Of a stretch of 64,000 bases of DNA, positions 8,075 through 64,000 are shown piece by piece. This DNA comes from Thermaurantimonas sp. (GTDB taxonomy: Bacteria > Bacteroidota > Bacteroidia > Flavobacteriales > Schleiferiaceae): NCBI RefSeq assembly GCF_046299575.1, contig NZ_JBKBHX010000006.1, positions 105,565 through 169,564 on the forward strand, read 5' to 3'. Below the pieces are notes generated by a model. It ran no database searches. It was not told the origin of the DNA and was given only the letters and a program-made list of their open reading frames with translations. Position 1 is the first letter of the stretch. Every line of letters begins with the position of its first letter. The position numbers and the translations under genes are program-made.

Positions 8075-8140
8075 GTAGATGTACTCTAATAAAATTTAGA
8101 AAAGTTTTTTAGATGTTTGAATTAAAGAATAGCTGTGAAA

Positions 8141-30805: not shown

Positions 30806-33800
30806 TTATATTCTTACCGTTAATTGGTCTGCAAACAACTCTGCTTGTTTTAATACGGTATCAATTGCCTTTTGTTGTTTATCAGGTGGATAGCCATATT
30901 TATTCAGTGTGCGCTTTACGATTACCATGAGCCTTGCTCTGGCACTTTCTCTTATGGTCCAGTCTATGGTTGCATTGGCTCTTACTTTGTTGGCTATTTC
31001 TTTTGCTATTTCTTTTGAGGTCTCGTTACCTAATACCTGAACGGCACTGTCGTTTACTTCCAAAGCATTGTAAAATGCCACTTCATCGGGTGTGAGTCCG
31101 AGCTTTTCGCCTTCTTTATCGGCTTCTTTTATTTCTTTGGCTATATTGATGAGTTCCTGAATAATTTCAGCGGTTGTAAGTAAATTATTCTGATAGCGTT
31201 TGATCGCGCTTTCAAGCATTTCCAGCAATTTCTTGCTCTTTACCAGATTTGTTTTGGCTCTTACTTTCAGCTCGTTGTTCAGAATTTTTTTCAGCAACTC
31301 GATTGCTAAATTTTTGTGCTGCATTCCCTGAACTTCCAACAGAAATTCATCGGAAAGTATTTCCAATCCTGAAATATCGGGCTTCTGAATTCCCGCAGCA
31401 TCAAAAATGTCAATCACTTTATCGCTGCTCAATGCTTCATCCACAATTTGTTTGATGGCGGTTTCTATTTCCACATCTGATTTACCACCACCAACAGGAG
31501 CATCAAACTTTACCAATCTTGATTTAACGGCTTGAAAAAACGCCACTTCGGTCAGATGAGGCTGTACTTCTTCTTTGGTAATGCAAAGCGAAAGTGCCTG
31601 ACTTAATAAACTTACCTCACGAATAAACCTCTCTTTACCGTTCTGTAACCCTAAAATGTGTTCTTCTGCTTGCAGAATGATGGAGAGTTTTTCCCGTTCA
31701 TCTGCAACAAAAAATCGGCGGTAATTGAATTTGAAACTGCCTTCGTAATAGGCCTGTGGTTCTTCAACCAAAATATCATTCCGGGTATTGCTCTCTTCAT
31801 AGAACATTTGCTGCACCACTTCCAGTTTCTCTTTGAAAATATCAAATGCTTTTTCGATGTTTTCTGCCGGGTCGCCTTTTCCACCTGCTTCACCGTAAAA
31901 TGAAAGCGCTTTCTTTAAATCGGTTCCAATGCCCAAATAATCCACAATCAAACCGCCCGGTTTGTCTTTGAAAACACGGTTTACCCGTGCAATGGCTTGC
32001 ATCAGGTTGTGTCCTCGCATGGGCTTATCAACGTACATCGTATTCAGGCAAGGAGCATCAAAACCCGTAAGCCACATATCCCGAACAATTACCAACTTCA
32101 GCTCATCAGCCGGATTTTTCATGCGTTCGGCCAACATACGGCGTTGTTCTTTAGTGGTGTGGTGTTGGGCAATTTCGGGGCCGTCTGCACTATTGGTGGT
32201 CATGACTACTTTAATAACCCCTTTAGTCAAATCGTCATGGTGCCATTCCGGACGAAGTGCAATAATTTCTTTGTAGAGTTCGGCAGCAATTCTGCGGCTC
32301 ATGGCTACAATCATTGCCTTGCCTTCAAAAACAGCCTGGCGTTGCTCAAAATGCGAAACAATGTCCCGGGCTAAATTTTTCAAACGTTCCGGATGTCCCA
32401 CAATGGCTTCCAGCTTTGTCCATTTGGCTTTGGCTTTTTGACCACCCCACCCTTCGGGTACCCCTCCATCGGAGGGGAATTCTTGGTCTTGTTCTAATTC
32501 CCGGTCGAATTCTTCAATTAAGCGTCTGCCTTCTTCGTCCAGATTTACCTTTGCCAGGCGACTTTCATAATAAATGGGTACCGTTGCCCCATCATCTATG
32601 GCATCTTTTATATCGTAGCGGTCGATGTAATTGCCGAAAACCTGAGGGGTGTTTCTGTCTGTACCTTCAATAGGCGTACCTGTAAAACCAATGTAGGTGG
32701 CATTGGGTAAAGCATCGCGCATGTATTTGGCAAAGCCGTAAGCAATGCGTTTGCCGATGACTTCTTTGGTTACTGCGTCTTTTTCGTCAATCAATTTTGC
32801 TTCAAAGCCATATTGCGTTCGGTGGGCTTCGTCGGCAATTACTACAATATTTCTGCGGTCGGAAAGTTGGGGGAACTTATCGCCCGATTGAGGTAAAAAC
32901 TTCTGAATAGTGGTAAAAACAATGCCCCCACTTGCCACCTTCAATAGTTCTTTGAGATGCTCTCTGCTTTCGGCCTGCACAGGTTCTTGCCGCAGCAACT
33001 GAACCGATGCCGCAAACGTATCAAACAACTGGTCGTCTAAATCGTTGCGGTCGGTAATGACTACTATGGTTGGATTTTTCATTTCGGGCGAAGTGATGAG
33101 CTTGCCCGCATAAAAAACCATACTCAAACTTTTGCCCGAACCTTGGGTGTGCCAAACCACACCGCCCCGCTTATCTCCGTTTTCGGCTGATGCCTGTATG
33201 GTTGATTGAACGGCTTTATTGACGGCATAGTACTGATGATAGGCCGCTAATTTCTTAACGGTATGCACCTGGATCAATCCTGTTTTGGGGTCTTCTTTTT
33301 TCGTTTTTTCAAATACAATAAAGTTGCGAACCAAATCCAGCAGTGTGGCGGGTTGCAGCATACCTCTGAGCAGCGTTTCTAATTGTGGCTTAAACCGGGA
33401 GGCCTCTCTAATTCCGTCAACGGTTTTCCATGCCATAAAACGCGAAAAATCGGCACTTACGGTGCCTGCTCTGCATTCCAGGCCATCGGAAATAATACAG
33501 ATAGCATTGTATGTGAATAAGCTGGGAATAGTGGCTTTGTAGGTTTGTATTTGCTGATACGCACTTTTGATGTCGGCCGTTTCGCTGGCGGCATTTTTCA
33601 GTTCTATGACTACCAAAGGCAAACCATTGACAAACAGCAACACATCGGGGCGTTTGTGCTGGTTGTTTTCAATAATGGTGTATTGATTTACTACTAAAAA
33701 TTGATTATTGGCCGGATGCTCAAAGTCAATCAATGCCACTTCGTGGCTGCGTTCATAGCCGTTTTCCTGATAGGGTACTTTTACCTTTTCAACCAGCAAG

Positions 33801-34105
33801 CGGTGAAATTCTTCGTTGTTGTGCAGCAAGTCAGGCGAAGCAATCCTTAACACTTTTTGAACAGCTGCTTCCTGTGCATCTAAGGGAATGTGCGGATTGA
33901 TTTTAGCAATGGCAGTTCTCAGCCGATTGAGCAAAAGAATTTGATTGAAACTTTCTCTTTCGTTACCACCCCGTACTTCGGACACCCCTCCGGAGGAGGG
34001 GAATTCGGGGGGAGAACAGGCAGAGCCCGGCAAGTATTCCCAGCCCTGCGATTGCAGAATTTCAATTGCTGACTGTTCGATGATATTTTCGGATAGAATA
34101 TTCAT
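30806..34105 (-). CDS. hsdR: Type I restriction enzyme R subunit
   Basis: 1099 aa. WHTQGSGKSLSMVF (helicase motif I), VVIADEAHRTQYG (DEAH), GFTGTPI, and the C-terminal HsdR domain. Its start ATG (34105..34103) overlaps the stop of the upstream gene (ATGA). Confidence 0.95.
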   Translation of the reverse strand: MNILSENIIEQSAIEILQSQGWEYLPGSACSPPEFPSSGGVSEVRGGNERESFNQILLLNRLRTAIAKINPHIPLDAQEAAVQKVLRIASPDLLHNNEEFHRLLVEKVKVPYQENGYERSHEVALIDFEHPANNQFLVVNQYTIIENNQHKRPDVLLFVNGLPLVVIELKNAASETADIKSAYQQIQTYKATIPSLFTYNAICIISDGLECRAGTVSADFSRFMAWKTVDGIREASRFKPQLETLLRGMLQPATLLDLVRNFIVFEKTKKEDPKTGLIQVHTVKKLAAYHQYYAVNKAVQSTIQASAENGDKRGGVVWHTQGSGKSLSMVFYAGKLITSPEMKNPTIVVITDRNDLDDQLFDTFAASVQLLRQEPVQAESREHLKELLKVASGGIVFTTIQKFLPQSGDKFPQLSDRRNIVVIADEAHRTQYGFEAKLIDEKDAVTKEVIGKRIAYGFAKYMRDALPNATYIGFTGTPIEGTDRNTPQVFGNYIDRYDIKDAIDDGATVPIYYESRLAKVNLDEEGRRLIEEFDRELEQDQEFPSDGGVPEGWGGQKAKAKWTKLEAIVGHPERLKNLARDIVSHFEQRQAVFEGKAMIVAMSRRIAAELYKEIIALRPEWHHDDLTKGVIKVVMTTNSADGPEIAQHHTTKEQRRMLAERMKNPADELKLVIVRDMWLTGFDAPCLNTMYVDKPMRGHNLMQAIARVNRVFKDKPGGLIVDYLGIGTDLKKALSFYGEAGGKGDPAENIEKAFDIFKEKLEVVQQMFYEESNTRNDILVEEPQAYYEGSFKFNYRRFFVADEREKLSIILQAEEHILGLQNGKERFIREVSLLSQALSLCITKEEVQPHLTEVAFFQAVKSRLVKFDAPVGGGKSDVEIETAIKQIVDEALSSDKVIDIFDAAGIQKPDISGLEILSDEFLLEVQGMQHKNLAIELLKKILNNELKVRAKTNLVKSKKLLEMLESAIKRYQNNLLTTAEIIQELINIAKEIKEADKEGEKLGLTPDEVAFYNALEVNDSAVQVLGNETSKEIAKEIANKVRANATIDWTIRESARARLMVIVKRTLNKYGYPPDKQQKAIDTVLKQAELFADQLTVRI
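32442..32482. repeat. 41-nt palindrome-containing element inserted in frame in hsdR (encodes EFPSDGGVPEGWGG)
   Basis: CCACCCC ACCC TTCGG GTA CCCCTCC ATC GGAGGGG AATTC. It contains a 7-bp-arm palindrome and is a near copy of 33966..34006. Confidence 0.8.
33966..34006. repeat. 41-nt palindrome-containing element inserted in frame in hsdR (encodes EFPSSGGVSEVRGG)
   Basis: CCACCCC GTAC TTCGG ACA CCCCTCC GGA GGAGGGG AATTC. Same orientation and same reading frame as the 32442..32482 copy. Confidence 0.8.
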
Positions 34106-36852
34106 TTATTCAGATGATATTTATTTTTTCTTCTTTGAAAAGCAATTTTCCCACCCTCAAGGATATTACAAACCGCAGTATTTATTACAGGATTTTCTAA
34201 TGAACCGCTGTCATAAGATAGTTTTTCTTCGTTGTTTGTTGCAACAATGACCTGTTCAGCGTCTGCATTTACTACAAGGTTTGCATTATGAGTTACAATT
34301 ATAACTTGCCTGTATTTCTTTATTTCTTTGAAAATATCAGTAAGGTCATTAAAGATAAAATCGTTATCAAGATCATCTTCGGGTTGGTCGAAAATAATAG
34401 GTTGAGAAAAAATATTTGTAGCTAATTTTAAGCACAAATAAATAGTTCCTCTCTGACCTACTGAGATTTTATTCAAAGGTTTTCCTTTATAAGTGATTTT
34501 GGGCTGAACATATAAATATTTAGAACGGGATTGAAGATCATAAAATATTTTTTCAAACTCATATCTGTTAGAACGTAAATAATTTTCAATTTTTTGAAAA
34601 GATGTATCAATGTTTCTCAGAAAATCAAGGTAATTCTCTAAATCGATAATTCCAACTAATCCTTTCAGTTCTTCATAACTGTTTTTTCCTTTGAAAATTC
34701 TGCCGTCTAACTGTTCTTTTACGAGGTCGTAAAATGCATTTATATCAAAAACTATTTCTCCCTCAATCTTGATTTCTCTGTTGTTAATAATTTTTTTCAT
34801 TAATTCCTTTTGCTGCTCATTCCAACCCTCTTTTCCTTGTAGAAGCCTACTCCAGCTTTGATCAATTGTAGATTTATGACGTAATAATTCCGAATAAATT
34901 AAATCAGCTATTTTCTTTTTATTGTTAAGAGCTGATTTTCGTTGGTTTTCTTTCTCTTCTATTTCTTTCTTTCGTCTTTCGTAAGATGAAATGGTGTGTC
35001 TGAACCGTTCTACATTTGAAAGCAGGGAGGCTATATCCCCTTTATAGTCCTTAAAATCGTTTTTAATTTTTGCATTTTCTTCTTGAGCTTCTTTTATTGT
35101 ATCGTCAATATTTTTAATAGCAGCATCAATACCATCAATTTGTGGTTTAAAATCTAATAAGGGAATACCCTTGTTTAGTTTAGTAATTTGTTCGTTTGTT
35201 TTTTGTAGAAATTCAGTTAGAGATGTTTTGAGTTGCTCTAAACTGAGTTTTTCGCTTTCACAGTCTTGCAGTTTTTCAATGTTTGCTGTATACTTTTGTA
35301 GTTTTTCTTTATTTTCCTCTGTTGTAATCCTATCTAATAAATTACGATTTTTATCTATTTCCTGCTGAATATAAGATTTCTGGTTTATAGGATTATTATT
35401 TTCATCCCGCTTGTTAAACCATTCCAGAATAGTATTAAATTCGGATCTATAATTCTGGATAGTTTCATCAATTTTCTGGTCAAATGAAAGCGTTTCAAGT
35501 TCCAAAATCTTCTTAATTTCCTCTCCCAATCCTTTTGCATCTTTTACCTTCTCTTTCACTTCACTTTGGGATATAAAAAGAAAGGGTAAATCGTACTGAG
35601 TATCCAATGGAAAAGTCTCATCCGTGCTATTAAGTGATTTTTTCCATTTTACTTTAAAATCTGATGATAGATTAAATTCAGATTTTTCAAAAGGAACATT
35701 GTATTGTTTAAACCCGTTTGCAAAATAGTTTATCAAAACACTTTTACCGGCTCCTCGTCCTCCAATAATTGTTACTAAGTTCTGATTTAATGGGATTCTG
35801 TTTTTCTCAAATTGTAATTGCTCATTCTCGAATACATTTACAGGATTTTCAATTTCAATTTCTGTAAAGGCAGATTTTTCAAAGTCATATGCTGGGTTAG
35901 TATTCTGTATTTTTACCCTTTCTTCCGGCTCATAAATGATTTGCTTTAGCCCTTCGAAAGTAAGATCTGATTTTATCCAAACTTTTCTATCTTGATTCTT
36001 TGTAAATAACTCATCAAATGTATGCGCATCACTTCCTCCAATACATGCTTTTAAACTTTTAAATTCATTAATGAAGTCTTCCGAAGAAGGATGTTTTTTG
36101 CCTAAAGCCCATTGTATAGTATTGGGGTTTGTAGCAATTAAAATGTCAGATTTCTGAATAAGTAATTTTCTTGCCTGATGATCCTGACCATTCCACGAAA
36201 CATTGCTTAAATCTTCATCAGAGGGCAAGGCAATTAGATATTTGCCTTCAAAGATGTTGCGTTTATTTGCAAGAATTTCACATATCTGTTTGTCATCAAC
36301 AACTGCATTCATCATTCCAATATACAAAGGTGATTTACCTTTGAATTGTGTGTGTTGCTCAATTAATTTTTCACCTAATTTTTCTAGATTATTTTTTTTC
36401 AATTTTCGCTTTTCATCTTCACTCTGTGGGGCGGCCTCATAAATAAAATCAATTTCATGCAGGAAATTTTCCTCAATATCAGTAAAAGAAATATCGTCAG
36501 ATAGTAAGACATGAAAGTTTATTCTATTGGAACCCACCAGTTTGTTAAGTCGAAATTCTATGTTCGGCAAGACGTAAATTGATTTGATCTTCTCAATTTC
36601 TTCTGAGTTAAAAAGCTCTTTTAATTTATCTTCTTTTTCAAAATACTCAGTCTTTATCTTCTTATAACCGTCAATTGTGAAATAGTCGGTTATTCCGATA
36701 GCTGAAACATTGTTTGCAATGGCTCTTTTAAATAATTCTTTTACATAAGTATCCCAATCGTTTCCAAAGCCATTATATAAATGAGAATATGGGGTGTGAA
36801 TATGCAAATCCCATAATCTCCATTCTGAACCTCTTTTAAAATTTTCTTTCAT
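34102..36852 (-). CDS. PHP-domain phosphoesterase fused to a coiled-coil ABC/SMC-like ATPase (Ppl-like architecture), embedded between hsdS and hsdR
   Basis: 916 aa. The N-terminal PHP motifs are WDLHIHTPYS, PNIEF, NFHVLL and IGGSDAH. Then come Walker A (IIGGRGAGKSVLINY), about 400 aa of K/E-rich heptad-like sequence, a signature-like ISVGQRGTIYLCL, Walker B/D-loop (QPIIFDQPEDDLD) and an H-loop (VIIVTHNANL). Confidence 0.8.
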   Translation of the reverse strand: MKENFKRGSEWRLWDLHIHTPYSHLYNGFGNDWDTYVKELFKRAIANNVSAIGITDYFTIDGYKKIKTEYFEKEDKLKELFNSEEIEKIKSIYVLPNIEFRLNKLVGSNRINFHVLLSDDISFTDIEENFLHEIDFIYEAAPQSEDEKRKLKKNNLEKLGEKLIEQHTQFKGKSPLYIGMMNAVVDDKQICEILANKRNIFEGKYLIALPSDEDLSNVSWNGQDHQARKLLIQKSDILIATNPNTIQWALGKKHPSSEDFINEFKSLKACIGGSDAHTFDELFTKNQDRKVWIKSDLTFEGLKQIIYEPEERVKIQNTNPAYDFEKSAFTEIEIENPVNVFENEQLQFEKNRIPLNQNLVTIIGGRGAGKSVLINYFANGFKQYNVPFEKSEFNLSSDFKVKWKKSLNSTDETFPLDTQYDLPFLFISQSEVKEKVKDAKGLGEEIKKILELETLSFDQKIDETIQNYRSEFNTILEWFNKRDENNNPINQKSYIQQEIDKNRNLLDRITTEENKEKLQKYTANIEKLQDCESEKLSLEQLKTSLTEFLQKTNEQITKLNKGIPLLDFKPQIDGIDAAIKNIDDTIKEAQEENAKIKNDFKDYKGDIASLLSNVERFRHTISSYERRKKEIEEKENQRKSALNNKKKIADLIYSELLRHKSTIDQSWSRLLQGKEGWNEQQKELMKKIINNREIKIEGEIVFDINAFYDLVKEQLDGRIFKGKNSYEELKGLVGIIDLENYLDFLRNIDTSFQKIENYLRSNRYEFEKIFYDLQSRSKYLYVQPKITYKGKPLNKISVGQRGTIYLCLKLATNIFSQPIIFDQPEDDLDNDFIFNDLTDIFKEIKKYRQVIIVTHNANLVVNADAEQVIVATNNEEKLSYDSGSLENPVINTAVCNILEGGKIAFQRRKNKYHLNK

Positions 36853-36867
36853 ATTGCCTTTCTGATT

Positions 36868-37968
36868 TTAACTCTTCACTCTTATTTCCCCGCTCATCAG
36901 CTTCGGCAGCAGCGTATCCCGCAACTGCGTAAGCGTGCGAATTTGCTGGGTGTTGGATTTGATTTTTTGGAAAAGGGGTTCAATTTCTTTATCAAAGTGC
37001 TTTATCTTTTCCTTTGGGGGAATAAGAAAATCCAGTGTTCTGAATGCTGCCTTTGAAATCTCTTGAAATACAGAACCGTTTCCTGCATTTTCTATCATTT
37101 CCATATTAGCCTTACACCACAAAAACATAAAATAGTTTGAAACGATTTTGTCGCATATAATTGCGATATACCCTTGATTGATGGCAACAGGAATTTCAGT
37201 TATAGCTAAATATCCAATAGGTGCTCTTGATGAAAGCAATAAAGTGCCAACAGGCAGAAGTCCAGAACTTATTTGCTTTAAACCTTCTTCTGTGATTTTG
37301 CGTGATGTGTCAAAAAGAAATATGGAAGTTGTGTTTGATAAATCTCTTGGAGAAGTCCAATGAATATTACCATCCCAATATTTCTGTTCTGTTGTGCTCG
37401 GTGTTGTTCCGCCTTTCATTGAAACAACATCATCAATAGTTCCAACCTCCCAACTCTCATCTGCTTCTTCTATGAACCACTGCCTGAAGAGGGTTTCAGC
37501 TAATTGCTCTAAGGTTTTGTTTTGGCGGTGCAGCAGGTCTATTTTGTCGTCTAAGCTGCTGAGTACTTCGGCTATGGCGGTTTGTATTTTTACATCATCC
37601 GTAATTGAAATATCTATTGAATTGAGTAAAGTTTGAGTTACAAGTGGGTGACTTGAACCCTCAGCATAACTGTTTAAATCTAAATTCCTCAAGAAATAAT
37701 ATAGAAACTTGGCATTGTACCCATTCTTTGGTTTTGCTGCTAATGCATTATCTGAAACCCAAATAGGTTTATCTTGATAATAAACAGAACCACAATAAGC
37801 ACCAACTCGCCCAATTATTATTGTTTCCCCATTGTAATTTGAACTATCACAATAACCTAAAATCCCGTTTCCACCAAACACGGGTATATCCCCTTTTGTT
37901 TTTGGTCTTTCCTTGCCATTTCCAAACTGAACAAATTCTGATAGTTTATATTCTTTCCACTCACTCAT
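36868..37968 (-). CDS. hsdS: Type I restriction-modification specificity subunit
   Basis: 366 aa. Two target-recognition halves are separated by the conserved spacer LDDKIDLLHRQNKTLEQLAETLFRQWF, and the C-terminus has the matching repeat IRTLTQLRDTLLPKLMSGEIRV. Confidence 0.9.
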   Translation of the reverse strand: MSEWKEYKLSEFVQFGNGKERPKTKGDIPVFGGNGILGYCDSSNYNGETIIIGRVGAYCGSVYYQDKPIWVSDNALAAKPKNGYNAKFLYYFLRNLDLNSYAEGSSHPLVTQTLLNSIDISITDDVKIQTAIAEVLSSLDDKIDLLHRQNKTLEQLAETLFRQWFIEEADESWEVGTIDDVVSMKGGTTPSTTEQKYWDGNIHWTSPRDLSNTTSIFLFDTSRKITEEGLKQISSGLLPVGTLLLSSRAPIGYLAITEIPVAINQGYIAIICDKIVSNYFMFLWCKANMEMIENAGNGSVFQEISKAAFRTLDFLIPPKEKIKHFDKEIEPLFQKIKSNTQQIRTLTQLRDTLLPKLMSGEIRVKS

Positions 37969-37998
37969 ATTATTGGTTTATTTTTAAATTGAAATTCG

Positions 37999-38024
37999 TT
38001 TTTCACTTTTCATTTTTCACTTTT
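37999..38024. repeat. Two copies of TTTTTCACTTTT (12 nt) spaced 2 nt apart, between orf263 and hsdS
   Basis: 37999..38010 and 38013..38024 are identical. On the coding strand this reads AAAAGTGAAAAA twice, 31-56 nt upstream of the hsdS ATG. Confidence 0.6.
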
Positions 38025-38029
38025 CGTTT

Positions 38030-38821
38030 TTACGCTGCTTGTTTTAATTTAGCAATGTTTTCGGGGGCATGCCTTTCGGTCCAAAGAATAAAATCGGCAT
38101 TTTTGCTACGCAAAGCGTCTAAGTATTCTTGCTGTATTTCTTTTTCTTCGTTATTGATTATAGCCAGTCCTATTACTTGTTTGTTGGTAATTTTTTCTCT
38201 TACGCTTTTAATATCCTCCCAGGTAAAAAGAAAATTGGGTATATTCAGTTTATTTAGAGTATTGAATGCTTTCAAAACAATTTCTTTCTCGCGGTAGGCA
38301 ATTTGAAAATCGAAAGTAAATTCCAGTCCTGTGCTTCCTTTAGAAATAAATTGGGGGGTGTAAATAATTTCTTGTTCGTCAAGATAATTGCGTACATCTT
38401 CTTTAAAGATAGAAGCAACGGTGTGCTTGGCGAGCATATACATATCGTTAATTTCAGAAATGGCGGAAATGAGATTATGTTTTTTCTGAGCGAAGTTATT
38501 TTCAGTGGCTTCTACAATTAACTCATCATTTTGTAATTGTATGCCATAGGTGAGTAAAATCCGTTCGAGCAAATCTTTTCGTTTAGGCGAACGAGTAATA
38601 GCCGCCCCTGTTAGTTCAAGATTTTTGAGCGTAATTCCATCATCGGACATAAGAATTTTGCCATTGTCTTTTTTGGCGTAAATTTCTAATGTATCATTAA
38701 ACAAGCCAATGAAAGGCGTGCTGATGACTGCCCAATTCGTACCTGTATCGGTTACAATGGTTGTACGTTCTTTCAAAAAATCGTAATATTTATTGATAAG
38801 TTCGTTTATCCAATGGTTCAT
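38030..38821 (-). CDS. Uncharacterised protein (263 aa); possibly DUF1828/DUF1829-type (recollection only)
   Basis: The start ATG overlaps the upstream stop (ATGA, 38821..38818). No catalytic motif recognised. The length and the N-terminal pattern (INELINKYYDFLKERTTIV...ISTPF...DTLEIY...DDG.T...L) resemble DUF1828+DUF1829 proteins as I remember them. I have not verified this. Confidence 0.55.
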   Translation of the reverse strand: MNHWINELINKYYDFLKERTTIVTDTGTNWAVISTPFIGLFNDTLEIYAKKDNGKILMSDDGITLKNLELTGAAITRSPKRKDLLERILLTYGIQLQNDELIVEATENNFAQKKHNLISAISEINDMYMLAKHTVASIFKEDVRNYLDEQEIIYTPQFISKGSTGLEFTFDFQIAYREKEIVLKAFNTLNKLNIPNFLFTWEDIKSVREKITNKQVIGLAIINNEEKEIQQEYLDALRSKNADFILWTERHAPENIAKLKQAA

Positions 38822-39345
38822 AGAAGTGAAGGTTGCAGTATGTTAAAAACAGTTTGCAAATGAATTAATTTGTTGAATGAAAAAAATGCCTGCTCAATAT
38901 CGTTATTGTTTGAGATAGTTTTCACGGGAAAACTATCCTCGGTTAATGGCAAAGCCCAATCTAAGGTAGTTTTATATCCTTCCACATAATAATGAATGTG
39001 ATGTTCGTGATAATCGAAAAACTTACCTGCAAAAGGATGAAAAATTTCAGGAACTTTGGGTGTAATTGTTTCGGGGTTTTTGTGTTGTCCGTTATAGTCT
39101 ATCCTTATCAGTCCAATTTTAGTGTCATCATCAAGCAGATATAACGTAAGTTTGAAATGATTTTTCTTGCTTTGGGTTATATCATAGATAAATGTGAAAT
39201 CGGTATTATCAGGCGAAATAAGCGTATATCTTACCGTAAATGGAAATGGTTGTTGATGGATTTCAATTTTATCTTCCAATACACCATTCATTTCTACTTT
39301 TTTTGGTAATTCTAAAAGATATTGTGCTTGTTGTATCGAGAACAT
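38818..39345 (-). CDS. Uncharacterised protein (175 aa), His-rich C-terminal half
   Basis: The ORF is translationally coupled to orf263. It contains IRIDYNGQHKNPE ... FHPFAGKFFDYHEHHIHYYVEGY. I recognise no family. Confidence 0.5.
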   Translation of the reverse strand: MFSIQQAQYLLELPKKVEMNGVLEDKIEIHQQPFPFTVRYTLISPDNTDFTFIYDITQSKKNHFKLTLYLLDDDTKIGLIRIDYNGQHKNPETITPKVPEIFHPFAGKFFDYHEHHIHYYVEGYKTTLDWALPLTEDSFPVKTISNNNDIEQAFFSFNKLIHLQTVFNILQPSLL

Positions 39346-39469
39346 TTTGTTGCAGTATTTTTAGTTGATATGTAACAAATTTTATATCTCAAATGCCTTC
39401 GTAGTTATTGATGAGTTTTATGTCGTAATTCATGGTATTGAAATTTCGTTGGTTTTAATTGTCTAATGT

Positions 39470-39916
39470 TTAATCAGTGCTGCCTTCGGGATCCTCAGGC
39501 AGCATTTGGGGAGTTTTATTATCGCTGCCTTCGAGTGCCTCAGGCAGCGGCACCTCAGGGTGGCTGAGGTTCTCGAAGCCACCCTGAGTGTTCTCGAAGC
39601 CACCCTGAGTGTTCTCGAGCTCACCCTTTTTTAAGTCACGATAAGCAAGCGCTAATTGCGGAAGTAATTCCGGTGTTCCATTTATCAACGCTTCTTTCTT
39701 CTTCCGGCTCCAACCCTGCACTTGCTTTTCGCGATAAAATGCTTCGTCAATGCGTGCATATTCCTCAAAATATACCAGCTTCACGGGTAATCTTTTCCTG
39801 GTATGATTCGCCCCTTCACCCGCCTGATGTTGAGCCAATCGCAGTTCAAGATTGGTAGTACTGCCGGTATAGTAACTGCCGTCAGCGCATTCTAATATGT
39901 ACATGTATCCTTTCAT
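39470..39916 (-). CDS. GIY-YIG nuclease family protein (core about 95 aa) with a repeat-encoded C-terminal extension
   Basis: GYMYILECADGSYYTGSTTNLELRLAQHQAG...RLPVKLVYFEEY...A...REKQVQGWSRKKKEALI is the small GIY-YIG (URI) domain. The last 50 aa or so (ENTQGGFENTQGGFENLSHPEV...) are translated from the hairpin/tandem repeats at 39479..39628. Confidence 0.85.
   Translation of the reverse strand: MKGYMYILECADGSYYTGSTTNLELRLAQHQAGEGANHTRKRLPVKLVYFEEYARIDEAFYREKQVQGWSRKKKEALINGTPELLPQLALAYRDLKKGELENTQGGFENTQGGFENLSHPEVPLPEALEGSDNKTPQMLPEDPEGSTD
39479..39628. repeat. Array of three stem-loops sharing a 13-nt loop, plus three 21-nt tandem units
   Basis: 39479..39503 is GCTGCC-TTCGGGATCCTCA-GGCAGC. 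39524..39548 is GCTGCC-TTCGAGTGCCTCA-GGCAGC. 39556..39586 is CAGGGTGGC-TGAGGTTCTCGAA-GCCACCCTG. 21-nt units start at 39566, 39587 and 39608. Confidence 0.85.
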
Positions 39917-39947
39917 ACTTTCATCTATGACGGGGGCTTCGGCTATT

Positions 39948-39978
39948 CAGGGTGGCTTCGAGAACCTCAGCCACCCTG
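39948..39978. repeat. 31-nt stem-loop, the exact reverse complement of 39556..39586
   Basis: CAGGGTGGC-TTCGAGAACCTCA-GCCACCCTG. Together with 39556..39586 it brackets the GIY-YIG core ORF as a perfect 31-nt inverted repeat. Confidence 0.85.
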
Positions 39979-40008
39979 TGTATTCTAAAAGCAAGCACCC
40001 TGAAAAGC

Positions 40009-41622
40009 TCAGCCCTCATGTATGTTTATTTTAGATAAATTAGCCATGATTCTATCATTCAATTCTTTCTCTTCCTGCATTTGTTTTTCCAGTTCGGCTT
40101 TGAGGGAAGCGAAGCGTTCGGCAAAGTTGAAGTCGTCTTCTTCTTCCGGTAGCCCCACGTAGCGGCCGGGTGTTAAGGCATAGTTTAGTGCTCTGACTTC
40201 CTCAATGGTTGCACTTTTGCAAAAGCCCTGAATGTCTTGGTAAGCTCCGCCTTCGACAGGCTCAGGCATCGCTTCGGCCGGCTCAGGCATCGCATTCCAA
40301 CGATGGTAAGTTTGGGCAATTTTTTGTATGTCGGCATTGCTAAGTTCACGGGTTCTGCGGTTAATCAAATGACCCATATTGCGGGCATCGATAAAAAGGA
40401 TTTGCCCTTTTCGGTTTTCACTTTTCTTTTTTCGTATAAACCAAAGGCAAGCAGGTATTTGCGTATTCAAAAACAATTTAGTGGGCAGGTTCACAATGCA
40501 GTCAATCAAATCGGCATCAACCAGGGCCTTGCGAATTTCGAATTCACCGCCCGCATTGCTGGTTAGCGAGCCTTTGGAAAGCACAAAGCCGGCCCTTCCG
40601 TTGGGAGCGAGATGATAGAGGAAGTGCTGTATCCAGGCATAGTTGGCATTGCCTGCCGGAGGAACCCCATACACCCATCGCGGGTCGTTTTTAAGCAATT
40701 CGCCACTCCAGTCGCTATCGTTAAAGGGCGGATTGGCAATGATAAAATCGGCTTTAAGGTCTTTGTGGGCATCGTTTAAAAAACTGCCTTCGTTGTTCCA
40801 TTTCACATTGCTGCTGTCGATGCCACGTATGGCAAGGTTCATTTTGCAGAGCCGCCAGGTGGTTTGGTTGCTTTCCTGTCCGTAAATAGAGATACGGTCT
40901 GATGGATTAAGCTGTAATTTTCTTCCGTTGTTTTTTTTGTAATAATCCTGATGGGCTTTAATAAATTTTTCGCTTTGTACAAACATGCCCCCGCTTCCAC
41001 AGCAAGGGTCAAATACCCTGCCTTCATAAGGTTCGAGCATTTCTACCAAAAGTTTTACTACACTTTCAGGCGTATAGAACTGACCTCCTTTCTTGCCTTC
41101 TGCCAGGGCAAATTGCCCCAGGAAGTATTCGTACACTCTGCCCAGAATATCTTTGGCTTGGGCTTCTTTAGTGCCCAGTGTTGCGGTACTAATCAGGTCA
41201 ATAAGTCCGCCCAGGCTGGTTTTGTCTAATTTTTCCTGTGCATATACTTTGGGCAAAACGCCTTTCAAAGAGGGGTTGTCTTTTTCTATGGCATCCATGG
41301 CATCGTCAATGTCTTTGCCAATGGAGGGCAGTTTTGCTCTGCCTTGCAGCCACGACCAACGAGCAGAAGGCGGCACATAAAACACTTTCTCGGCGACATA
41401 TTCATTTTTGTCTTCGGGGTCGGCTCCTTCATAGTCGCCTTTGCCTTCTTTCAGTTTGTGGTAAAGTTCTTCGAAAGCATCGGAGATGTATTTTAGGAAA
41501 ATAAGCCCTAAAACCACATGTTTGTATTCGGCTGCATCCATGTTTTTACGGAGCTTGTCAGCCGCTTTCCAGAGTTTTTTCTCCAAGGATTCTTCTGCTA
41601 TTTCTTTTGCTTTTTTGGCCAT
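40009..41622 (-). CDS. hsdM: Type I restriction-modification N6-adenine DNA methyltransferase subunit
   Basis: 537 aa. N-terminal HsdM domain ([32 protein letters not shown]), [12 protein letters not shown] (motif I) and IIANPPFN (motif IV). Confidence 0.95.
40251..40292. repeat. Two 21-nt tandem units inside hsdM (encode [14 protein letters not shown])
   Basis: CTTCGACAGGCTCAGGCATCG (40251..40271) and CTTCGGCCGGCTCAGGCATCG (40272..40292). The core TTCGRNNGGCTCA resembles the loops of the GIY-YIG-flanking hairpins. Confidence 0.8.
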
Positions 41623-41905
41623 TATTGAGATTTTAATTGTTTGCTAAATTAGGTTTTGGTTATTTCTTTTCGTAATCAGAGCTTTGGCAGGAAATAGGGC
41701 CGGCTATAGTTGAATCTGGTTTTGCTAAGGGACAAATTAAATATTCTGATACAGTTCAGCATTGAATTATTCGTGTTTTTCTCTAGGCGTCAGTTGTAAG
41801 TCGCTTCACAATAAAAAAAATCGAAGTAAAAAATTAAAACACAAATAATATGGCAATGCATGTAGGTTTATTCGTTGTCCGTTTTAAATTTGTCCTAAAT
41901 ATTAG

Positions 41906-42905
41906 TCACCTGTCAGAATGGTTTATTTTTTTCTTAATTATAAGTTGTCTGTATGTTGTTGTCAGGTCGTCTTTTACAATTGCTGTCAATGGTTTAAAAC
42001 GGTATAAAGGTCTGCAATTGTTAGGATTTTTAGCATTGAACTTGATTTGAAGCACAAAACTTTTGGCTACCACTGAAATGTAATCGAAGGACGAAACCCC
42101 GAATTGCAAATGTGCTTTATTGTACAATTTTTATCATTTTCGAGGTCTCTCATTGGTGAAGAATAAGTCGTAAAGTTCATGCAGTTCAGGCTTTATACTG
42201 TCAAACAGTTTTTTTAGTTTCTTTAATATTTATAGATGCCACTTCAGGAAAAATTCTCTTCAAATGTTTTATCTTCTTTATATAGTCTGGATAATAAAAT
42301 TTCACCTATCTGCCATTAAATTCATTTATTTCAATGAGTGGCCAGAGATATTCATATGCATTCCACGTTGGAGTTTTTCGAACTTTTCTTATAACACTGT
42401 CTTTTGGGATGGCAGGATTCACCCTATTTTGAATGTAACCTTCTATTGTAAACCATTCTTTCGGTAAAAATCATATGTGCAAGTTGTTTTTCTACAACTA
42501 GTCTGGCACCTTTATTTCTTTTTTCAAGTTCAACTGCTCGAAACAATACATCGCTATTGGGAATCTGCTTGACAAAGTTTTTTAGATCAAATATTGGGTC
42601 AATCGTCAACTGTCCATAAACTATCGCACCGCGCAATAAAAGGTTATTTTGAAATAAGATAGAATAGAGATATCCTAAGTGTATAAGTGTCGAGCTTAAA
42701 ATTGTCCCTGTAATAAAAATTTCACCCCCCCAAAAATATACATTAAAATCGAGCTTAATCTTTCAATGCGCTTTTTGTGACCAGAGACGAAAAGAGCTTG
42801 GATTTTTACCTGTTATAGGATAATTCAATTCTTTTAAAATGACATTTATCGATATGAATCTTACCAATTTTTCATAAAAAATTCGTACTCATTAACATCG
42901 CTCAT
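41906..42905 (-). pseudogene. Decayed gene of unknown family (about 330 codons with frameshifts and in-frame stops)
   Basis: Hand translation of the minus strand gives MSDVNEYEFFMKNW, a frameshift, VRFISINVILKELNYPITGKNPSSFRLWSQKAH, an in-frame TGA, KIKLDFNVYFWGGEIFITG...LLLRGAIVYGQLTIDPIF...AHMIFTE, a frameshift, WFTIEGYIQNRVNPAIPKD...EINEFNGR, a TAG, VKFYYPDYIKK..., a frameshift, FDSIKPELHELYDLFF... Only short fragments appear in the ORF track. Confidence 0.4.
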
Positions 42906-43059
42906 AGGGTTGGAAGCTGTTGTGAGTAATCAAGATAGTACATGCCCACTTGGCGAAGCCATTCCCTTTTTGCAATTTATCCGTTACACACGAGATAAAA
43001 TCCCCACCCACATATTCCTTAAAAACACTGTATGTTTGAGCATCTAAACGAATTTTTGT

Positions 43060-46086: not shown

Positions 46087-46136
46087 ATTGATCAAACTTA
46101 ATTTAAATTTTAAAACTTATGCTCAAAAAACGCTTG

Positions 46137-46210
46137 TGACTTCGTAGGGATTCGAACCCCAAACCTTCTGATCCGTAGTCAGATGCTCTATCCAGTTGAG
46201 CTACGAAGCC
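46137..46210 (-). tRNA. tRNA-Arg (anticodon ACG)
   Basis: The reverse complement is GGCTTCGTAGCTCAACTGGATAGAGCATCTGACTACGGATCAGAAGGTTTGGGGTTCGAATCCCTACGAAGTCA. It folds as a cloverleaf (7-bp acceptor, GCTC/GAGC D stem, TCTGA/TCAGA anticodon stem, loop CTACGGA, GGTTCGAATCC T-arm). CCA is not encoded. Confidence 0.9.
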
Positions 46211-52410: not shown

Positions 52411-52743
52411 GTGAATGAATTAAAGGAGCAAGTCAACGCACAAATGCGCAAAGGCGTTCTTGAACTCTGTGTATTAGCTATTCTAAATCAAAGCGATGCA
52501 TATTCAAATGATATAATTGAGGCATTAAAAAAGCACGAAATTATCCTGGTAGAAGGCACGTTATATCCCCTACTTACGCGCATGAAAAACCAGGGACATC
52601 TCACCTATCGATGGGAAGAAAGCAACCAAGGCCCACCGCGTAAATACTATTCGATTACTCAAGCGGGAAAAGAATATTTCAATACATTAAGAACCATATG
52701 GATTGATTTTTCTTCTTCTATCAACAAACTTTTGCAACAATGA
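52411..52743 (+). CDS. PadR-family transcriptional regulator
   Basis: GVLELCVLAILNQSDAYSNDIIEALK......EGTLYPLLTRMKNQGHLTYRWEES..GPPRKYYSIT..G is the PadR wHTH signature. Confidence 0.85.
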   Translation: MNELKEQVNAQMRKGVLELCVLAILNQSDAYSNDIIEALKKHEIILVEGTLYPLLTRMKNQGHLTYRWEESNQGPPRKYYSITQAGKEYFNTLRTIWIDFSSSINKLLQQ

Positions 52744-54251
52744 AAAAAGCAATATCAGTACAGGTAGCCCGTGTACCATTTACTATGAGCTCAGAAGCTT
52801 TTGAAACTCTGGCGTTGTATTTAGAAAATATCAAGAAAGTCATTCATCCTGATTATCGGGAAGAAACGCTGAATGATATTGAATTGAGAATTGCAGAGTT
52901 GTTAAATCAAAAAAAGCAAAATAATCATATCATTGAAAAAGAACTCATTGACGAAATTGTACAAATTATAGGAAAACCAGAAGAATTTTTAGATCATAAA
53001 GAAACCTCAAATACCTCTTCAGAACTTTATAAATTTGATAAGAAACTTTTTAGAGATCCCGACAATAACATTTTGGGAGGAGTTGCTGCCGGATTCTCTC
53101 ATTATTTTTCTGTTCATAAAATCGTTTTTAGGCTTTTTTTCATAGTTCTAACTTTTTATCAAGGTATTGGGATTTTATTATACCTTTTCTTTTGGGTTAT
53201 TTTACCAAAAGCAAAAACATATGTAGAAAAAATGATTATGAAGGGCGAGGAGATTCCATCTCAATATTTAGATCAAGTAATAATTGACAAATACAATTCC
53301 AAAAAATTTTTAGATTCGAGAGCTTTACATAACAAATTATTTGAAAAATTACTTGATTTTATAGGAAGTATTTTGATTTATACCAAAAATTTTTTGGTAA
53401 ATTTACTTTCCCGTAGCTCACTGGCAATTTTGTCTATTGCAATTATATTGTTTTTAATAATTACCTTTTTAGCTAGTTATGAAATTCTAACAGATAGCAT
53501 AACAATCAATAATGTTAAAATTACAAAGGAAAATGCATTAAACTATATTTTATTAATCTTCCCTTCTACCCTTTATGCAGGTTTATTTTTTATAAGTATT
53601 ATTACTTTAATTGTAAGTCTATTAGCTGTATTGAAAATAGGATATAGAAATTTGACTAAGAAGAATGGTATAAAACGGGCTAAAAGTCTTTATCTTGCAC
53701 TTTTAGCATTATTACTTTCTTTTGTTATAACAAGAGTTTTAATATATTTTATTGAAAAAAATTTTTCTGTGCAAACTTCTTTTATACTTCAATCGGATAA
53801 TTTTTCAATATCAGAAGGTGAAATTTTACATGTTGTACCAAATAATATATTCGCATTTGATGTTCTTCCTATTGTATTAAAAGGAGATTCAGTATATTCA
53901 TCAAATATTGATTTTGTTTTTATTAAAAGTCAAACAGATAAAGCGATGTTTACTGTAAAAGCTGAAGCTAAAGGAGCGAATGAATTGGAGGCTTTTAAAA
54001 ACATTCAAGGCGTCAGATATCAAGTATATAAAGAAGGCAATAGAATAAATGTTTTTTCCTATTTTTCATATCCAAAATACATTGGATTTAGAGATCAAAA
54101 AATAATTATTGAAATTCACCTTCCTGTAAATCAAATAATATATTTACCCGAAAATTTCTCAGGTCATTATGATGTTTTTGAAGATGAAGAATCAGAAGAC
54201 TTATTACCAGGATATTATAAAATGACAGAAGAAGGACTAATTAAATTATAG
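52740..54251 (+). CDS. PspC domain-containing membrane protein
   Basis: KLFRDPDNNILGGVAAGFSHYFSVHKIVFRLFFIVLTF is the PspC domain. The start overlaps the padR stop (ATGA). Confidence 0.75.
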   Translation: MKKAISVQVARVPFTMSSEAFETLALYLENIKKVIHPDYREETLNDIELRIAELLNQKKQNNHIIEKELIDEIVQIIGKPEEFLDHKETSNTSSELYKFDKKLFRDPDNNILGGVAAGFSHYFSVHKIVFRLFFIVLTFYQGIGILLYLFFWVILPKAKTYVEKMIMKGEEIPSQYLDQVIIDKYNSKKFLDSRALHNKLFEKLLDFIGSILIYTKNFLVNLLSRSSLAILSIAIILFLIITFLASYEILTDSITINNVKITKENALNYILLIFPSTLYAGLFFISIITLIVSLLAVLKIGYRNLTKKNGIKRAKSLYLALLALLLSFVITRVLIYFIEKNFSVQTSFILQSDNFSISEGEILHVVPNNIFAFDVLPIVLKGDSVYSSNIDFVFIKSQTDKAMFTVKAEAKGANELEAFKNIQGVRYQVYKEGNRINVFSYFSYPKYIGFRDQKIIIEIHLPVNQIIYLPENFSGHYDVFEDEESEDLLPGYYKMTEEGLIKL

Positions 54252-54294
54252 AGTTCCTTACCAACATATGTTCTGAAAGTGTGAATTTCTATAT

Positions 54295-57200: not shown

Positions 57201-57399
57201 AGAAGATAAGAAAAAAATGTTTGGGCTTTTTCAACGTCTCTCTGCTAAGCCCACAAAAGGAGAAAGTTCTACGGGTTTAGGTTTATATATTGTAAAAAAT
57301 TATACGGAACTAAATGATGGATTTGTAGAGCTCGAAAGCACTTACGGCGAAGGATCTACCTTTCATATTTACTTACCTCTGGTAGAAAAAATTGTTTAA
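54295..57399 (+). CDS. Sensor histidine kinase with a large periplasmic beta-propeller/Y_Y_Y-type sensor region
   Basis: 1034 aa. A long extracytoplasmic region, one transmembrane segment (YLNLYFIIFLVILIVIILLYI), a coiled coil, an H-box (GVYAHDLKNPLSAI), an N-box (FQNLLSNAIKYS) and G-boxes (DQGPGF, GLGLYIV). Confidence 0.85.
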   Translation: MSKISNVRKFFIFLIIFLHSIFIYSNPKPLFKTFGPTITKGSGINWQVTQTKEGLIIVASSAGVKIFDGYNWEIVKNRLNSEVYSIHYNPEDCNIYVGGLEDFGYIELDNSNKWTYISLFNLLPLSQTSFGKIWQTIITENVYFISEKFIFEYDQMKITIHQPENNTFYKAFVYKNTFFVQEEGVGLFAIVGGKKKFIKNSNIFNDKLIEFILPTTQGAKVFFSDGVVAQCKIENNEVKDVIFESNQVSKYIKNGSLRKILHLFDGNYAFALGNAGVVITDSSFHIKCIYNQENKIINEFVNDIYEDYFGNLWTAEEYLIRFINYGSPYSIYTNSDGIFGVIHSFVDLKNAVYLSDQYNIYIFENSELKKIHQINEIIRKIYKIDENSFFVLTNKAIYIFEKQKFTKLFEFSEGKNIFTFDNANKIFGVYNNHLILIFSIKFSKVSFEFLKTLDQVEISDIVVDTNKRIWFSTTSSGVGFLFEGKIKFYDTKSGLPSYFNNRIVYVNNQIYILTQEGIFKPDKYLNNLRRTSDFGDYISKQFVTNINPSKFGLFIKLTNEKNQNEFYLINSSLTIDSDFNKIFKYLPERGFAGWHLTHDDKLLISFIEGLYVLDLNKSHRLYQPLEITVQQMLYNQKGYYDEKRNRIVLNYDYGPLQIFITSPYYEGQDKITYFYRIKNGNNEWQELKNSNIIVIPQLHFGNYEIQIYARNIYGINSEIKSIPIHVKTPWYLNLYFIIFLVILIVIILLYIQKLRESYLAKKNKELEELIQLRTKELIDEKKELERSKEELYELSKQRNQLLGVYAHDLKNPLSAIDGIKELMEVTISTTDLDESIKKELMEYLSMIKSSTTQMMSIIQDILSSVRQDSFKQKIDKKIVDIIEILSEHYSLMNNYARQKNIQIHFQPKGKYLVNVDERKIGEVFQNLLSNAIKYSNENSTVEIGINTEIRNGKEFVKISIKDQGPGFTEEDKKKMFGLFQRLSAKPTKGESSTGLGLYIVKNYTELNDGFVELESTYGEGSTFHIYLPLVEKIV

Positions 57400-57401
57400 G
57401 T

Positions 57402-63750: not shown

Positions 63751-63758
63751 CGATTGAG

Positions 63759-64000
63759 TGGAGCTGGCGGGATTCGAACCCGCGTCCAAACAAGGAATAC
63801 ATCAGCTTTCTACATGCTTAGTCTGTCGTTGCTTTTTCGACCACCGGATGGAGACAGACACCCTGCCGATGGCTTAGCTGCTTCAATTTCGGGGTGTGAC
63901 TGCAGCATTCACTCCCCTATTCACCCTTTTATGACACCCTGTAACCCACCGCCGGGCGAATCGGCTGTGGCAGGATGACTTGCTCTGCCACCTGGTGACA
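63759..64000 (-). ncRNA. ssrA: tmRNA, 3' portion (5' end beyond the window)
   Basis: The reverse complement ends ...GACTAAGCATGTAGAAAGCTGATGTATTCCTTGTTTGGACGCGGGTTCGAATCCCGCCAGCTCCA. The GACTAAGCATGTAG box and the GGACGCGGGTTC.A.TCCCGCCAGCTCCA tRNA-like 3' end closely match the E. coli tmRNA terminus. Confidence 0.9.

Follow-up and report, generated by a model that had tools for sequence, protein, structure and literature searches.

We analysed a 64,000-nt stretch of the Thermaurantimonas sp. contig NZ_JBKBHX010000006.1 (hereafter the window), in which seven minus-strand genes between positions 30,806 and 41,622 make up a type I restriction-modification (R-M) operon with four additional genes nested inside. 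The locus is probably best read as one intact type I R-M operon whose two junctions, hsdM-hsdS and hsdS-hsdR, act as cargo slots and hold three autonomous modules: a GIY-YIG protein, the PDC-M24A/B pair and a TrlF-family protein. These modules would be layered with the R-M system, sharing its transcript without being parts of it. The seven open reading frames (ORFs) are listed below from hsdM to hsdR, with the evidence used for their assignment.

41622..40009, minus strand: hsdM, type I R-M methyltransferase subunit, 537 aa (ORF and family scans)
39916..39470, minus strand: GIY-YIG gene of the UPF0213/YhbQ type, 148-aa ORF (Pfam and PDB matches)
39345..38818, minus strand: orf175, PDC-M24A (DUF6978), 175 aa (PADLOC and Pfam)
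38821..38030, minus strand: orf263, PDC-M24B (DUF1828 and DUF1829), 263 aa (PADLOC and Pfam)
37968..36868, minus strand: hsdS, specificity subunit with two target-recognition domains, 366 aa (Pfam and PADLOC)
36852..34102, minus strand: TrlF-family protein, 916 aa (NCBIfam NF045780)
34105..30806, minus strand: hsdR, restriction/translocase subunit, 1099 aa (Pfam and TIGR00348)

An original prediction made from the sequence had described this arrangement, and its description of the layout held. The seven ORFs lie at exactly the coordinates it gave, the intergenic gaps measure 92, 124, 61 and 15 nt as it had them, and both ATGA stop/start overlaps (orf175/orf263 and TrlF/hsdR) are legible in the sequence. 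Its domain calls (HsdM, HsdS, HsdR, GIY-YIG, PHP plus ATPase) were upheld by family scans, and the intact hsd genes together with the embedded ORFs confirmed a type I R-M operon with nested cargo. Its two spot G+C counts, 29/60 on an hsdR line and 15/60 on a line of the PHP/ATPase gene, were exact. The compositional contrast between cargo and hsdM or hsdR that was drawn from them extends to whole genes: G+C is 0.458 for hsdM, 0.488 for the GIY-YIG gene and 0.440 for hsdR, as against 0.324 for M24A, 0.354 for M24B, 0.376 for hsdS and 0.309 for TrlF, with a window mean of 0.407. The cargo is as tightly packed as had been claimed, on one strand, with gaps of at most 124 nt and two ATGA overlaps, and a sequence scan of the intergenic gaps found none with a terminator-like site on the coding strand. 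The operon is probably co-transcribed.

The three R-M genes look functional, and the type I system is predicted to be intact. HsdM matched HsdM_N (1.2e-28) and N6_Mtase (1.2e-111) in Pfam and MTase_I in PADLOC (8e-195), and it carries the motifs DPCCGSGGM and NPPF of a gamma-class N6-adenine methyltransferase. HsdS matched Methylase_S in two stretches (Pfam, 5e-48) and Specificity_I over its full length (PADLOC, 7e-105, residues 1-365); it has two target-recognition domains and the conserved central and C-terminal segments common to related loci. Overall HsdS is only ~36-37% identical to its counterparts in these loci, which implies a different specificity. HsdR matched HSDR_N (9e-51), SWI2_SNF2 (ResIII; 4e-82) and T1RH-like_C (7e-121) in Pfam as well as TIGR00348 (1.2e-192, 642 bits against a cut-off of 285). 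Its motifs D154...E169-x-K171, GSGKS and DEAH are intact, as for a PD-(D/E)xK nuclease joined to an SF2 translocase, and its closest solved structure is the type IC enzyme EcoR124I/II (~1e-36).

Orthologous hsdM/hsdR loci, a comparison proposed along with the original prediction, carry different cargo on the same backbone. Three of them are described here by their protein identities to the window and by their cargo.

Locus L001: HsdM 84%, HsdR 87.5%, TrlF 85%; cargo SMODS, M78 peptidase, two unknowns and TrlF
Locus L085: HsdM 86%, HsdR 88%, M24B 87%; cargo M24AB, and PDDEXK_3 with RhuM
Locus L084: HsdM 83%, HsdR 74%, M24A 91%, M24B 97%; cargo a 306-aa ORF with M24AB, and a TrlG-like gene with IVP

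At the DNA level the locus is a mosaic on a backbone that it shares with these loci. For the M24AB cassette (39391..37931) the identity to L084 is 92.8%, against 75% for the hsdM gene and 72% for the hsdR gene that flank it; TrlF and hsdR form one contiguous 6-kb block with 82% identity to L001. In hsdS, only short conserved central and C-terminal segments align with related loci (82-95% DNA identity). These segments border the slots and are obvious places for cassettes to be exchanged by homologous recombination. Judged from these alignments, the modules reassort independently on orthologous R-M backbones, and related R-M loci would exchange cargo through homologous recombination in the conserved hsdM, hsdS and hsdR segments next to each slot.

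The same comparison uncovered a remnant of cargo between the GIY-YIG gene and the M24AB cassette.

39394..39450, minus strand: relic that joins the 3′ end of a foreign hsdM to the opening ~40 nt of a 306-aa cargo gene (L084 alignment)

This segment is 91% identical to L084 positions 3949-4005. The two copies have ATGAATTACGACATAAA(A/G)CTCATCAATAACTACGAAGGCA in common, after which the window copy runs into a stop, and in L084 the intact 306-aa gene lies between hsdM and M24A. By this alignment, 39394-39450 is the stub of a deleted fifth cargo gene and a relic of cargo turnover. L084 also carries, at 9440-9787 and just upstream of hsdR, a 23S_rRNA_IVP (four-helix-bundle) gene, another small nested family.

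The 916-aa protein scored 533.9 bits with the TrlF-family model NCBIfam NF045780 (1.2e-159, residues 7-913; cut-off 350), and an identical protein, attributed to a Thermaurantimonas sp. MAG of the Bacteroidota, carries the NCBI name 'TrlF family AAA-like ATPase'. An N-terminal PHP phosphoesterase domain is followed by an ABC/Rad50-like (SMC-type) ATPase that is split by a helical insert of ~350 residues. The PHP match is weak (Pfam, 1.7e-4), and the sole PDB match of the protein is the Rad50 ABC ATPase (7e-3). Across 20 homologues, the PHP residues D15, H19, D56, E99, H114, D275 and H277 and the ABC residues K370, Q429, S797, D822, E825 and H855 are invariant. Ppl is a single-gene anti-phage exonuclease of E. 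coli that combines PHP and NTPase domains. By analogy, TrlF would most likely be a single-gene nuclease system working in the same manner, in which a Rad50-like ABC ATPase engages DNA ends and controls an NTP-gated PHP 3′-5′ exonuclease.

The TrlF family is large (>2,600 protein clusters). A scan of species-representative genomes gave at least 575 relatives, and gene context was analysed in 83 loci. An hsdM- or hsdR-like gene was found within 10 kb in ~10 of these 83 (about 12%), and no recurrent partner emerged from Pfam scans of 131 immediate neighbours (~77 loci). The commonest families among these 131 neighbours were ResIII (6), DEAD (6), N6_Mtase (4), HSDR_N (3), Mrr_cat (3) and TrlG-like proteins (3), a list that looks like a defence neighbourhood. 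Close relatives illustrate this range of contexts: the 85%-identical TrlF of L001, a Chitinophagales type I operon, stands directly before hsdR with a 1-nt overlap, an 83%-identical one precedes a type III mod/res pair by 18 nt (L002), and a 59%-identical one is solitary (L003). By its contexts, TrlF is an autonomous module and not an R-M part. The original prediction had tied all cargo to the R-M genes, naming cargo found mostly away from R-M genes as evidence to the contrary, and for TrlF this is what the contexts gave. It had also proposed translational coupling of this gene to hsdR. The overlap is real, but the special partnership is not backed, since equally tight junctions are formed by RhuM with hsdR in L085 (4-nt overlap) and by M24B with hsdR in several loci. 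Tight hsdR junctions being generic for whatever fills the slot, the TrlF/hsdR overlap is no evidence of a special functional tie.

TrlG-like genes (Schlafen AlbA_2 plus HATPase_c_4) were observed in the hsdS-hsdR slot of three loci, L084 (7464-9131), L121 (12635-13792) and L122 (12662-13819). The gene is alone in L084, and in L121 and L122 it comes after a distant PHP plus ABC ATPase, an assignment confirmed by Pfam in L121 and made from ORF size and position in L122.

Both genes of the second module belong to a named family. The protein of orf175 matched PADLOC PDLC04537 (PDC-M24A, 9.4e-61) and Pfam DUF6978 (2.9e-19), and that of orf263 matched PDLC04539 (PDC-M24B, 1.6e-99), DUF1828 (5e-26) and DUF1829 (2.8e-21). 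As neighbouring A and B genes on the same strand with a 4-nt ATGA overlap, they constitute a PDC-M24 pair. The original prediction had spoken of two uncharacterised modules, and both turned out to match named families, PDC-M24A/B in PADLOC and TrlF in NCBIfam. In the supplement of Payne et al. the PDC-M24 cassette appears as CAS_00098, with the remark 'Assign as candidate PDC-M24' (10.1101/2024.01.29.577857). We found no anti-phage test of PDC-M24 in the literature, and the text accessible from Payne et al. gives it candidate status (10.1101/2024.01.29.577857).

PDC-M24 loci were collected from a metagenome scan (80 loci) and from contig look-ups (5 loci). M24A partners M24B in 73 of 82 loci, the other 9 having M24B without an M24A match. 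Context was counted in the 21 loci with at least 3 kb on each side. In 14 of them (about 70% embedded) the pair is flanked by hsd genes on both sides, and this in three different slots: hsdM|M24AB|hsdS (10), hsdR|M24AB|hsdS (2) and hsdS|M24AB|hsdR (2). Two further loci have hsd on one side only, and five have no hsd gene nearby and unrelated neighbours. From these counts, PDC-M24 is a mobile pair that resides mostly but not always in type I operons. A side observation concerns L175, where a type I operon (6835-10669) has a GIY-YIG gene after hsdM and, after hsdS, an OLD-like ATPase with a UvrD helicase (Gabija-like), a 68-aa ORF and a DUF1828/DUF1829 protein without DUF6978 partner. The latter may be a PDC-M24 variant with a different A subunit.

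The biochemical role of the pair was approached through residues and folds. M24A has the invariant residues G78, R81, H88, N90, P91, P99, H116, H118 and W130. Pfam scans of 59 M24A members returned DUF6978 only, the single-sequence structure model was unusable (pLDDT 44), and the only PDB match of the M24A profile was a histidine-triad protein at a non-significant E of 0.88 (HIHxx...LAW). The AlphaFold model of M24B (pLDDT 64) gave no significant Foldseek match in the PDB (best E 2e-3, TM at most 0.33). The non-significant top matches are mostly PD-(D/E)xK nucleases, a weak hint that the DUF1829 half of M24B might have a fold of this kind. M24B also matches the phage protein family phrog_5059 (2.7e-70).

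The association of the GIY-YIG gene with type I R-M was the least expected result of the analysis. Its protein matched Pfam GIY-YIG at residues 2-74 (9e-19) and, in the PDB, 1zg2 (2.9e-16) and 1ywl (6.5e-12), both 'UPF0213'; no PADLOC or NCBIfam match was found. It has the stand-alone GIY-YIG domain (~80-100 aa) of UPF0213/YhbQ. Homologues match only a conserved core of ~98 aa (39623-39916), and the C-terminal tail consists of 21-nt tandem repeats (39569-39631) and hairpins at 39479-39503 and 39524-39548. The original prediction had noted a hairpin in the 92-nt gap between hsdM and this gene; the hairpin is real (39948-39978) and proved to be the upstream arm of a perfect 32-nt inverted repeat, found by a repeat search.

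39947..39978, no strand: upstream arm of the inverted repeat, forming the hairpin CAGGGTGGCT-11 nt-AGCCACCCTG
39556..39587, no strand: downstream arm of the inverted repeat, inside the tail of the GIY-YIG ORF

The GIY-YIG core lies between the two arms, each of which forms a hairpin of its own, and AGCCACCCTG occurs in the window as 5 exact copies, every one of them within 39556-39978. The inverted repeat was considered as a conserved mobile-element end and rejected as a feature of the family, as homologous loci with similar repeats have them in the C-terminal tail only and none upstream; the homologues in L169 and L175 have tail repeats of similar sequence.

Type I R-M genes surround or directly adjoin the GIY-YIG gene in 8/8 sampled relatives: six lie between hsdM and hsdS (five of them directly after hsdM), one lies after hsdS, and the remaining one follows a frameshifted hsdM near a contig end. 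Adding L090, with the layout hsdR-GIY-M24A-M24B, and the window itself, the clade is beside hsd in 10/10 loci, a small sample picked by similarity to a protein that is itself embedded. The hosts include Bacteroidota, Desulfobotulus and Kuenenia (Bacteroidota, Desulfobacterota and Planctomycetota). The core is 81-93% identical to that of the window, whereas in the same loci HsdM is 27-75% and HsdR 29-60% identical. Synonymous sites are saturated (pS 0.69-0.98) and pN is low (0.04-0.14), so that these genes are old and strongly constrained and not recent copies. A 51%-identical relative in Sphingomonas sits in a housekeeping setting, with nrdR on one side and a gene for an RNA methyltransferase on the other, which indicates that the R-M link belongs to this clade and not to all UPF0213. 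A plasmid scan gave only two matches, both of ~51% identity; one of them lies among housekeeping genes and the second in a record without annotation.

Such core identity across divergent type I families suggests action on something common to all type I systems. The target could be a DNA structure arising from translocation or cleavage, or the protein could control the downstream hsdS and hsdR genes. This pattern of conservation does not suggest a latch to particular Hsd subunits. We found no paper in the literature describing an R-M-linked GIY-YIG clade. That the clade represents an accessory dedicated to type I R-M systems and so far undescribed is a tentative proposal, drawn from gene context and conservation, which we would rather doubt than assert.

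Three other explanations were weighed against the docking of autonomous modules in an R-M operon. The original prediction had likened the cargo to PrrC, a latent effector. Cargo would then be held inactive by the Hsd complex and fire abortively when an anti-restriction protein disables the type I enzyme, a principle established by PrrC. PrrC is also, in Payne et al., the example of a system found almost only embedded (10.1101/2024.01.29.577857). The most plausible candidates are PDC-M24A/B, which ~70% of informative loci have inside a type I operon irrespective of the slot, and the GIY-YIG protein, beside hsd in the 8/8 sampled loci, in L090 and in the window; for these two, found mostly or always in type I operons, the idea is possible. 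It is less plausible for TrlF, to which it is unlikely to apply, its relatives being mostly remote from R-M. Even for the candidates there are difficulties: M24AB occurs without any hsd gene in 5/21 loci and M24B has homologues in phages (phrog_5059), and a GIY-YIG core that stays 81-93% identical while HsdM ranges over 27-75% fits ill with a specific latch to fast-diverging Hsd subunits. No cargo protein matches PrrC or an anticodon-nuclease model. Taken for the locus as a whole, we regard a guarding arrangement of this type as unlikely. Still less credence can be given to four cargo and three hsd genes forming one co-evolved machine, in which TrlF and HsdR would be stoichiometrically coupled and the nuclease and ATPase modules would process DNA captured by the type I enzyme. 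The compact single-strand layout with two ATGA overlaps would suit such a machine, as would the TrlF-hsdR junction kept in L001 (1-nt overlap) and in the distant L033 (3-nt gap) and the recurrence of hsdM-M24A-M24B-hsdS-(PHP plus ATPase) in L121 and L122. The full seven-gene set, however, occurs in no other locus, each module has different partners on the same R-M backbone, and the modules differ from this backbone in divergence (93% vs 72-75% DNA identity) and in G+C. Tight coupling to hsdR is also seen with unrelated cargo (RhuM, M24B). The PHP-ATPase of L121 and L122 is only 23-30% identical to TrlF of the window and is followed by the TrlG-like gene, with no hsdR detected in ~3-4 kb downstream. 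As far as the compared sequences go, an integrated seven-gene machine is contradicted by the reassortment data and largely refuted.

The GIY-YIG gene alone could be a selfish, homing-endonuclease-like insertion at the hsdM/hsdS junction, the inverted repeats being part of the mobile unit. GIY-YIG is a classic homing-endonuclease fold, the perfect 32-nt repeat around the core has its motif nowhere else in 64 kb, and the gene is patchy on orthologous backbones (absent from L001, L084 and L085) and is found in type I families with no more than 27-35% HsdM identity. This we hold to be improbable. Saturated synonymous sites (pS 0.69-0.98) against 4-14% non-synonymous differences speak of long-term strong purifying selection on a protein of ~98 aa, whereas selfish endonuclease genes typically decay. 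The protein lacks a DNA-binding extension. In the other loci examined the gene and hsdM share a 4-nt overlap and the upstream arm was not found, and the viral contig collection yielded no relatives.

Several points also weigh against the docking of three autonomous modules in one operon. The ties of PDC-M24 (~70% embedded) and of the GIY-YIG clade (10/10) to type I R-M far exceed what is expected of fully autonomous modules, and with so strong a linkage a dependence on Hsd proteins is possible for both. The hsd genes were detected by phmmer with one query set, which underestimates distant R-M families, and the locus samples are biased to the best-scoring relatives. Sigma-70-like promoters occur at chance level (35 found vs 35 expected), Bacteroidota using other motifs; the internal gaps of the operon contain no TAnnTTTG, the -7 motif of Bacteroidetes, and there may be internal promoters, for example in the 124-nt gap. 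Given a promoter scan ill-suited to Bacteroidota and at chance, the operon structure is one that we infer. Finally, TrlF reached 110.6 bits with the Ppl family model NCBIfam NF042955, whose cut-off is 1000; as TrlF falls outside this family, the Ppl mechanism is proposed from its architecture. With these points included, a type I operon with autonomous cargo is still the reading that we favour. Plausibly the cargo is defensive, and its benefit would be complementary coverage, phages that evade type I restriction still meeting other mechanisms.

The operon is flanked by housekeeping genes (Na/H exchanger, thioesterase, L/F-transferase, MGMT-like protein, S9 peptidase, DUF4199), which makes it a self-contained, isolated insertion and not part of a larger defence island. 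A second defence island at 52740-58337 (G+C 0.27-0.32) was considered and ruled out, as the region encodes a PspC-domain protein, a hybrid histidine kinase and a Na/Ca exchanger. Upstream of hsdM, a 1.4-kb stretch of low G+C (~0.33; 41623-43059) contains no convincing ORF for a regulator. Within it, ~130 nt (41852-41983) are 76% identical to the hsdM-upstream region of L001 and may be a conserved leader or promoter region. A tRNA-Arg(ACG) gene lies at 46136-46210, 4.5 kb from hsdM, and a tmRNA gene truncated by the window end at 63756-64000. Since neither is adjacent to the R-M operon, nothing points to an integration targeted at a tRNA or tmRNA gene. A megablast search of the locus against E. 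coli genomes gave no match.

Compared with Ppl, TrlF of the window has the same fusion of an N-terminal PHP domain to an ABC-type NTPase, with intact catalytic residues. Its C-terminal ATPase matches the Ppl models of PADLOC (5e-25, the best of two stretches, residues 795-910) and NCBIfam (5.7e-32). Unlike an orthologue it remains below the family cut-off, it carries the helical insert of ~350 residues, and among solved ATPases Rad50 is the nearest. PrrC is a true R-M guard and a published precedent for cargo in type I operons, and RloC is 'rarely linked to a type I R-M system'. As in the EcoprrI type IC locus of PrrC, an ABC-ATPase protein is encoded in a type I R-M operon, and HsdR of the window is nearest to the type IC enzyme EcoR124I; the N-terminus of TrlF is a PHP domain and not an anticodon-nuclease domain. 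The PADLOC matches of the 916-aa protein are Ppl, HEC-01A, LmuB, mad8 and PDC-M01A, with neither PrrC nor RloC among them. A near-obligate type I linkage as for PrrC is not seen for TrlF (~10/83); for PDC-M24 the counts point clearly to neither side (14/21 flanked on both sides, 5/21 with no hsd), and within its small sample the linkage is seen for the GIY-YIG clade (10/10). Campylobacter RloF is taken to be of the GmrSD type and unrelated to TrlF, presumably so from its mention only in papers on the GmrSD family. The UPF0213/YhbQ proteins BH0048 (1zg2) and EF2693 (1ywl) have the same GIY-YIG-only fold of ~80-100 aa; what sets the window clade apart is its tie to type I R-M operons.

The TrlF family owes its name to the trlR-trlF-trlG temperature-restriction locus (TRL) of Photorhabdus laumondii, which limits growth at 36 C and in which TrlF is annotated as PHP/histidinol phosphatase; the mutations recovered by selection fell in trlG, with none in trlF (Hapeshi et al. 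2020, PMC7554251). Such growth restriction fits a conditionally toxic TrlF module by analogy, though the mutations hit trlG. The window protein belongs to the same family NF045780, and TrlG-like genes occupy the hsdS-hsdR slot of L084, L121 and L122, those following a PHP-ATPase in L121 and L122 seeming to echo the Photorhabdus trlF-trlG pair. The window itself differs in having neither trlG nor trlR, its trlF lying in a type I operon and overlapping hsdR; tblastn with two TrlG-like proteins found no TrlG in it, and there is accordingly no TRL-operon linkage.

The closest demonstrated parallel in layout is TgvAB, a GmrSD-type, modification-dependent restriction system that is embedded in the type I R-M system of Vibrio cholerae VPI-2, is independently active, and is found 17 times more often outside such an embedded arrangement than within it (Vizzarro et al. 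2024, PMC11411939). There too a type I operon is interrupted by cargo that is an independent second defence system, and its homologues are mostly non-embedded, as are those of the window TrlF. In contrast, no cargo of the window is GmrSD-like, and activity was demonstrated for TgvAB whereas the window locus is known from sequence. The TgvAB experiments thus give a precedent for complementary coverage by embedded cargo.

More generally, 'guilt-by-embedding' describes defence genes within type I R-M, BREX, DISARM and Hma operons (Payne, Hughes, Fineran & Jackson 2024, bioRxiv 10.1101/2024.01.29.577857), and the PDC systems are candidates that go back to genes nested in BREX, DISARM and type I R-M operons (10.1101/2024.01.29.577857). 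The locus agrees with that description in its single-strand arrangement with extra genes nested between hsdM, hsdS and hsdR, and in orf175 and orf263, which match models built from such embedded cassettes. It differs in that TrlF and the GIY-YIG protein have no PADLOC model of their own and in that three modules share two slots. The locus had been put forward as an undescribed composite defence system; with orf175/orf263 being PDC-M24, the 916-aa protein belonging to the TrlF family and embedding already described, this part of the original prediction is not supported. The cargo-in-type-I layout has been described before and two of the three modules are already catalogued; the locus is a new combination of a known kind.

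The interest of the locus rests mainly on its candidate TrlF and PDC-M24 modules and on the highly conserved R-M-linked GIY-YIG clade. TrlF is a widespread family of Ppl-like architecture without a defence-database model and hence a candidate for testing; PDC-M24 remains a candidate, its strong but non-obligate tie to type I R-M now quantified; and the GIY-YIG clade, if it is a functional accessory, would add a component to an enzyme class that is among the longest studied. This locus illustrates clearly, in a natural setting, how type I R-M operons act as docking sites for defence genes, and it backs the guilt-by-embedding approach rather than extending it.

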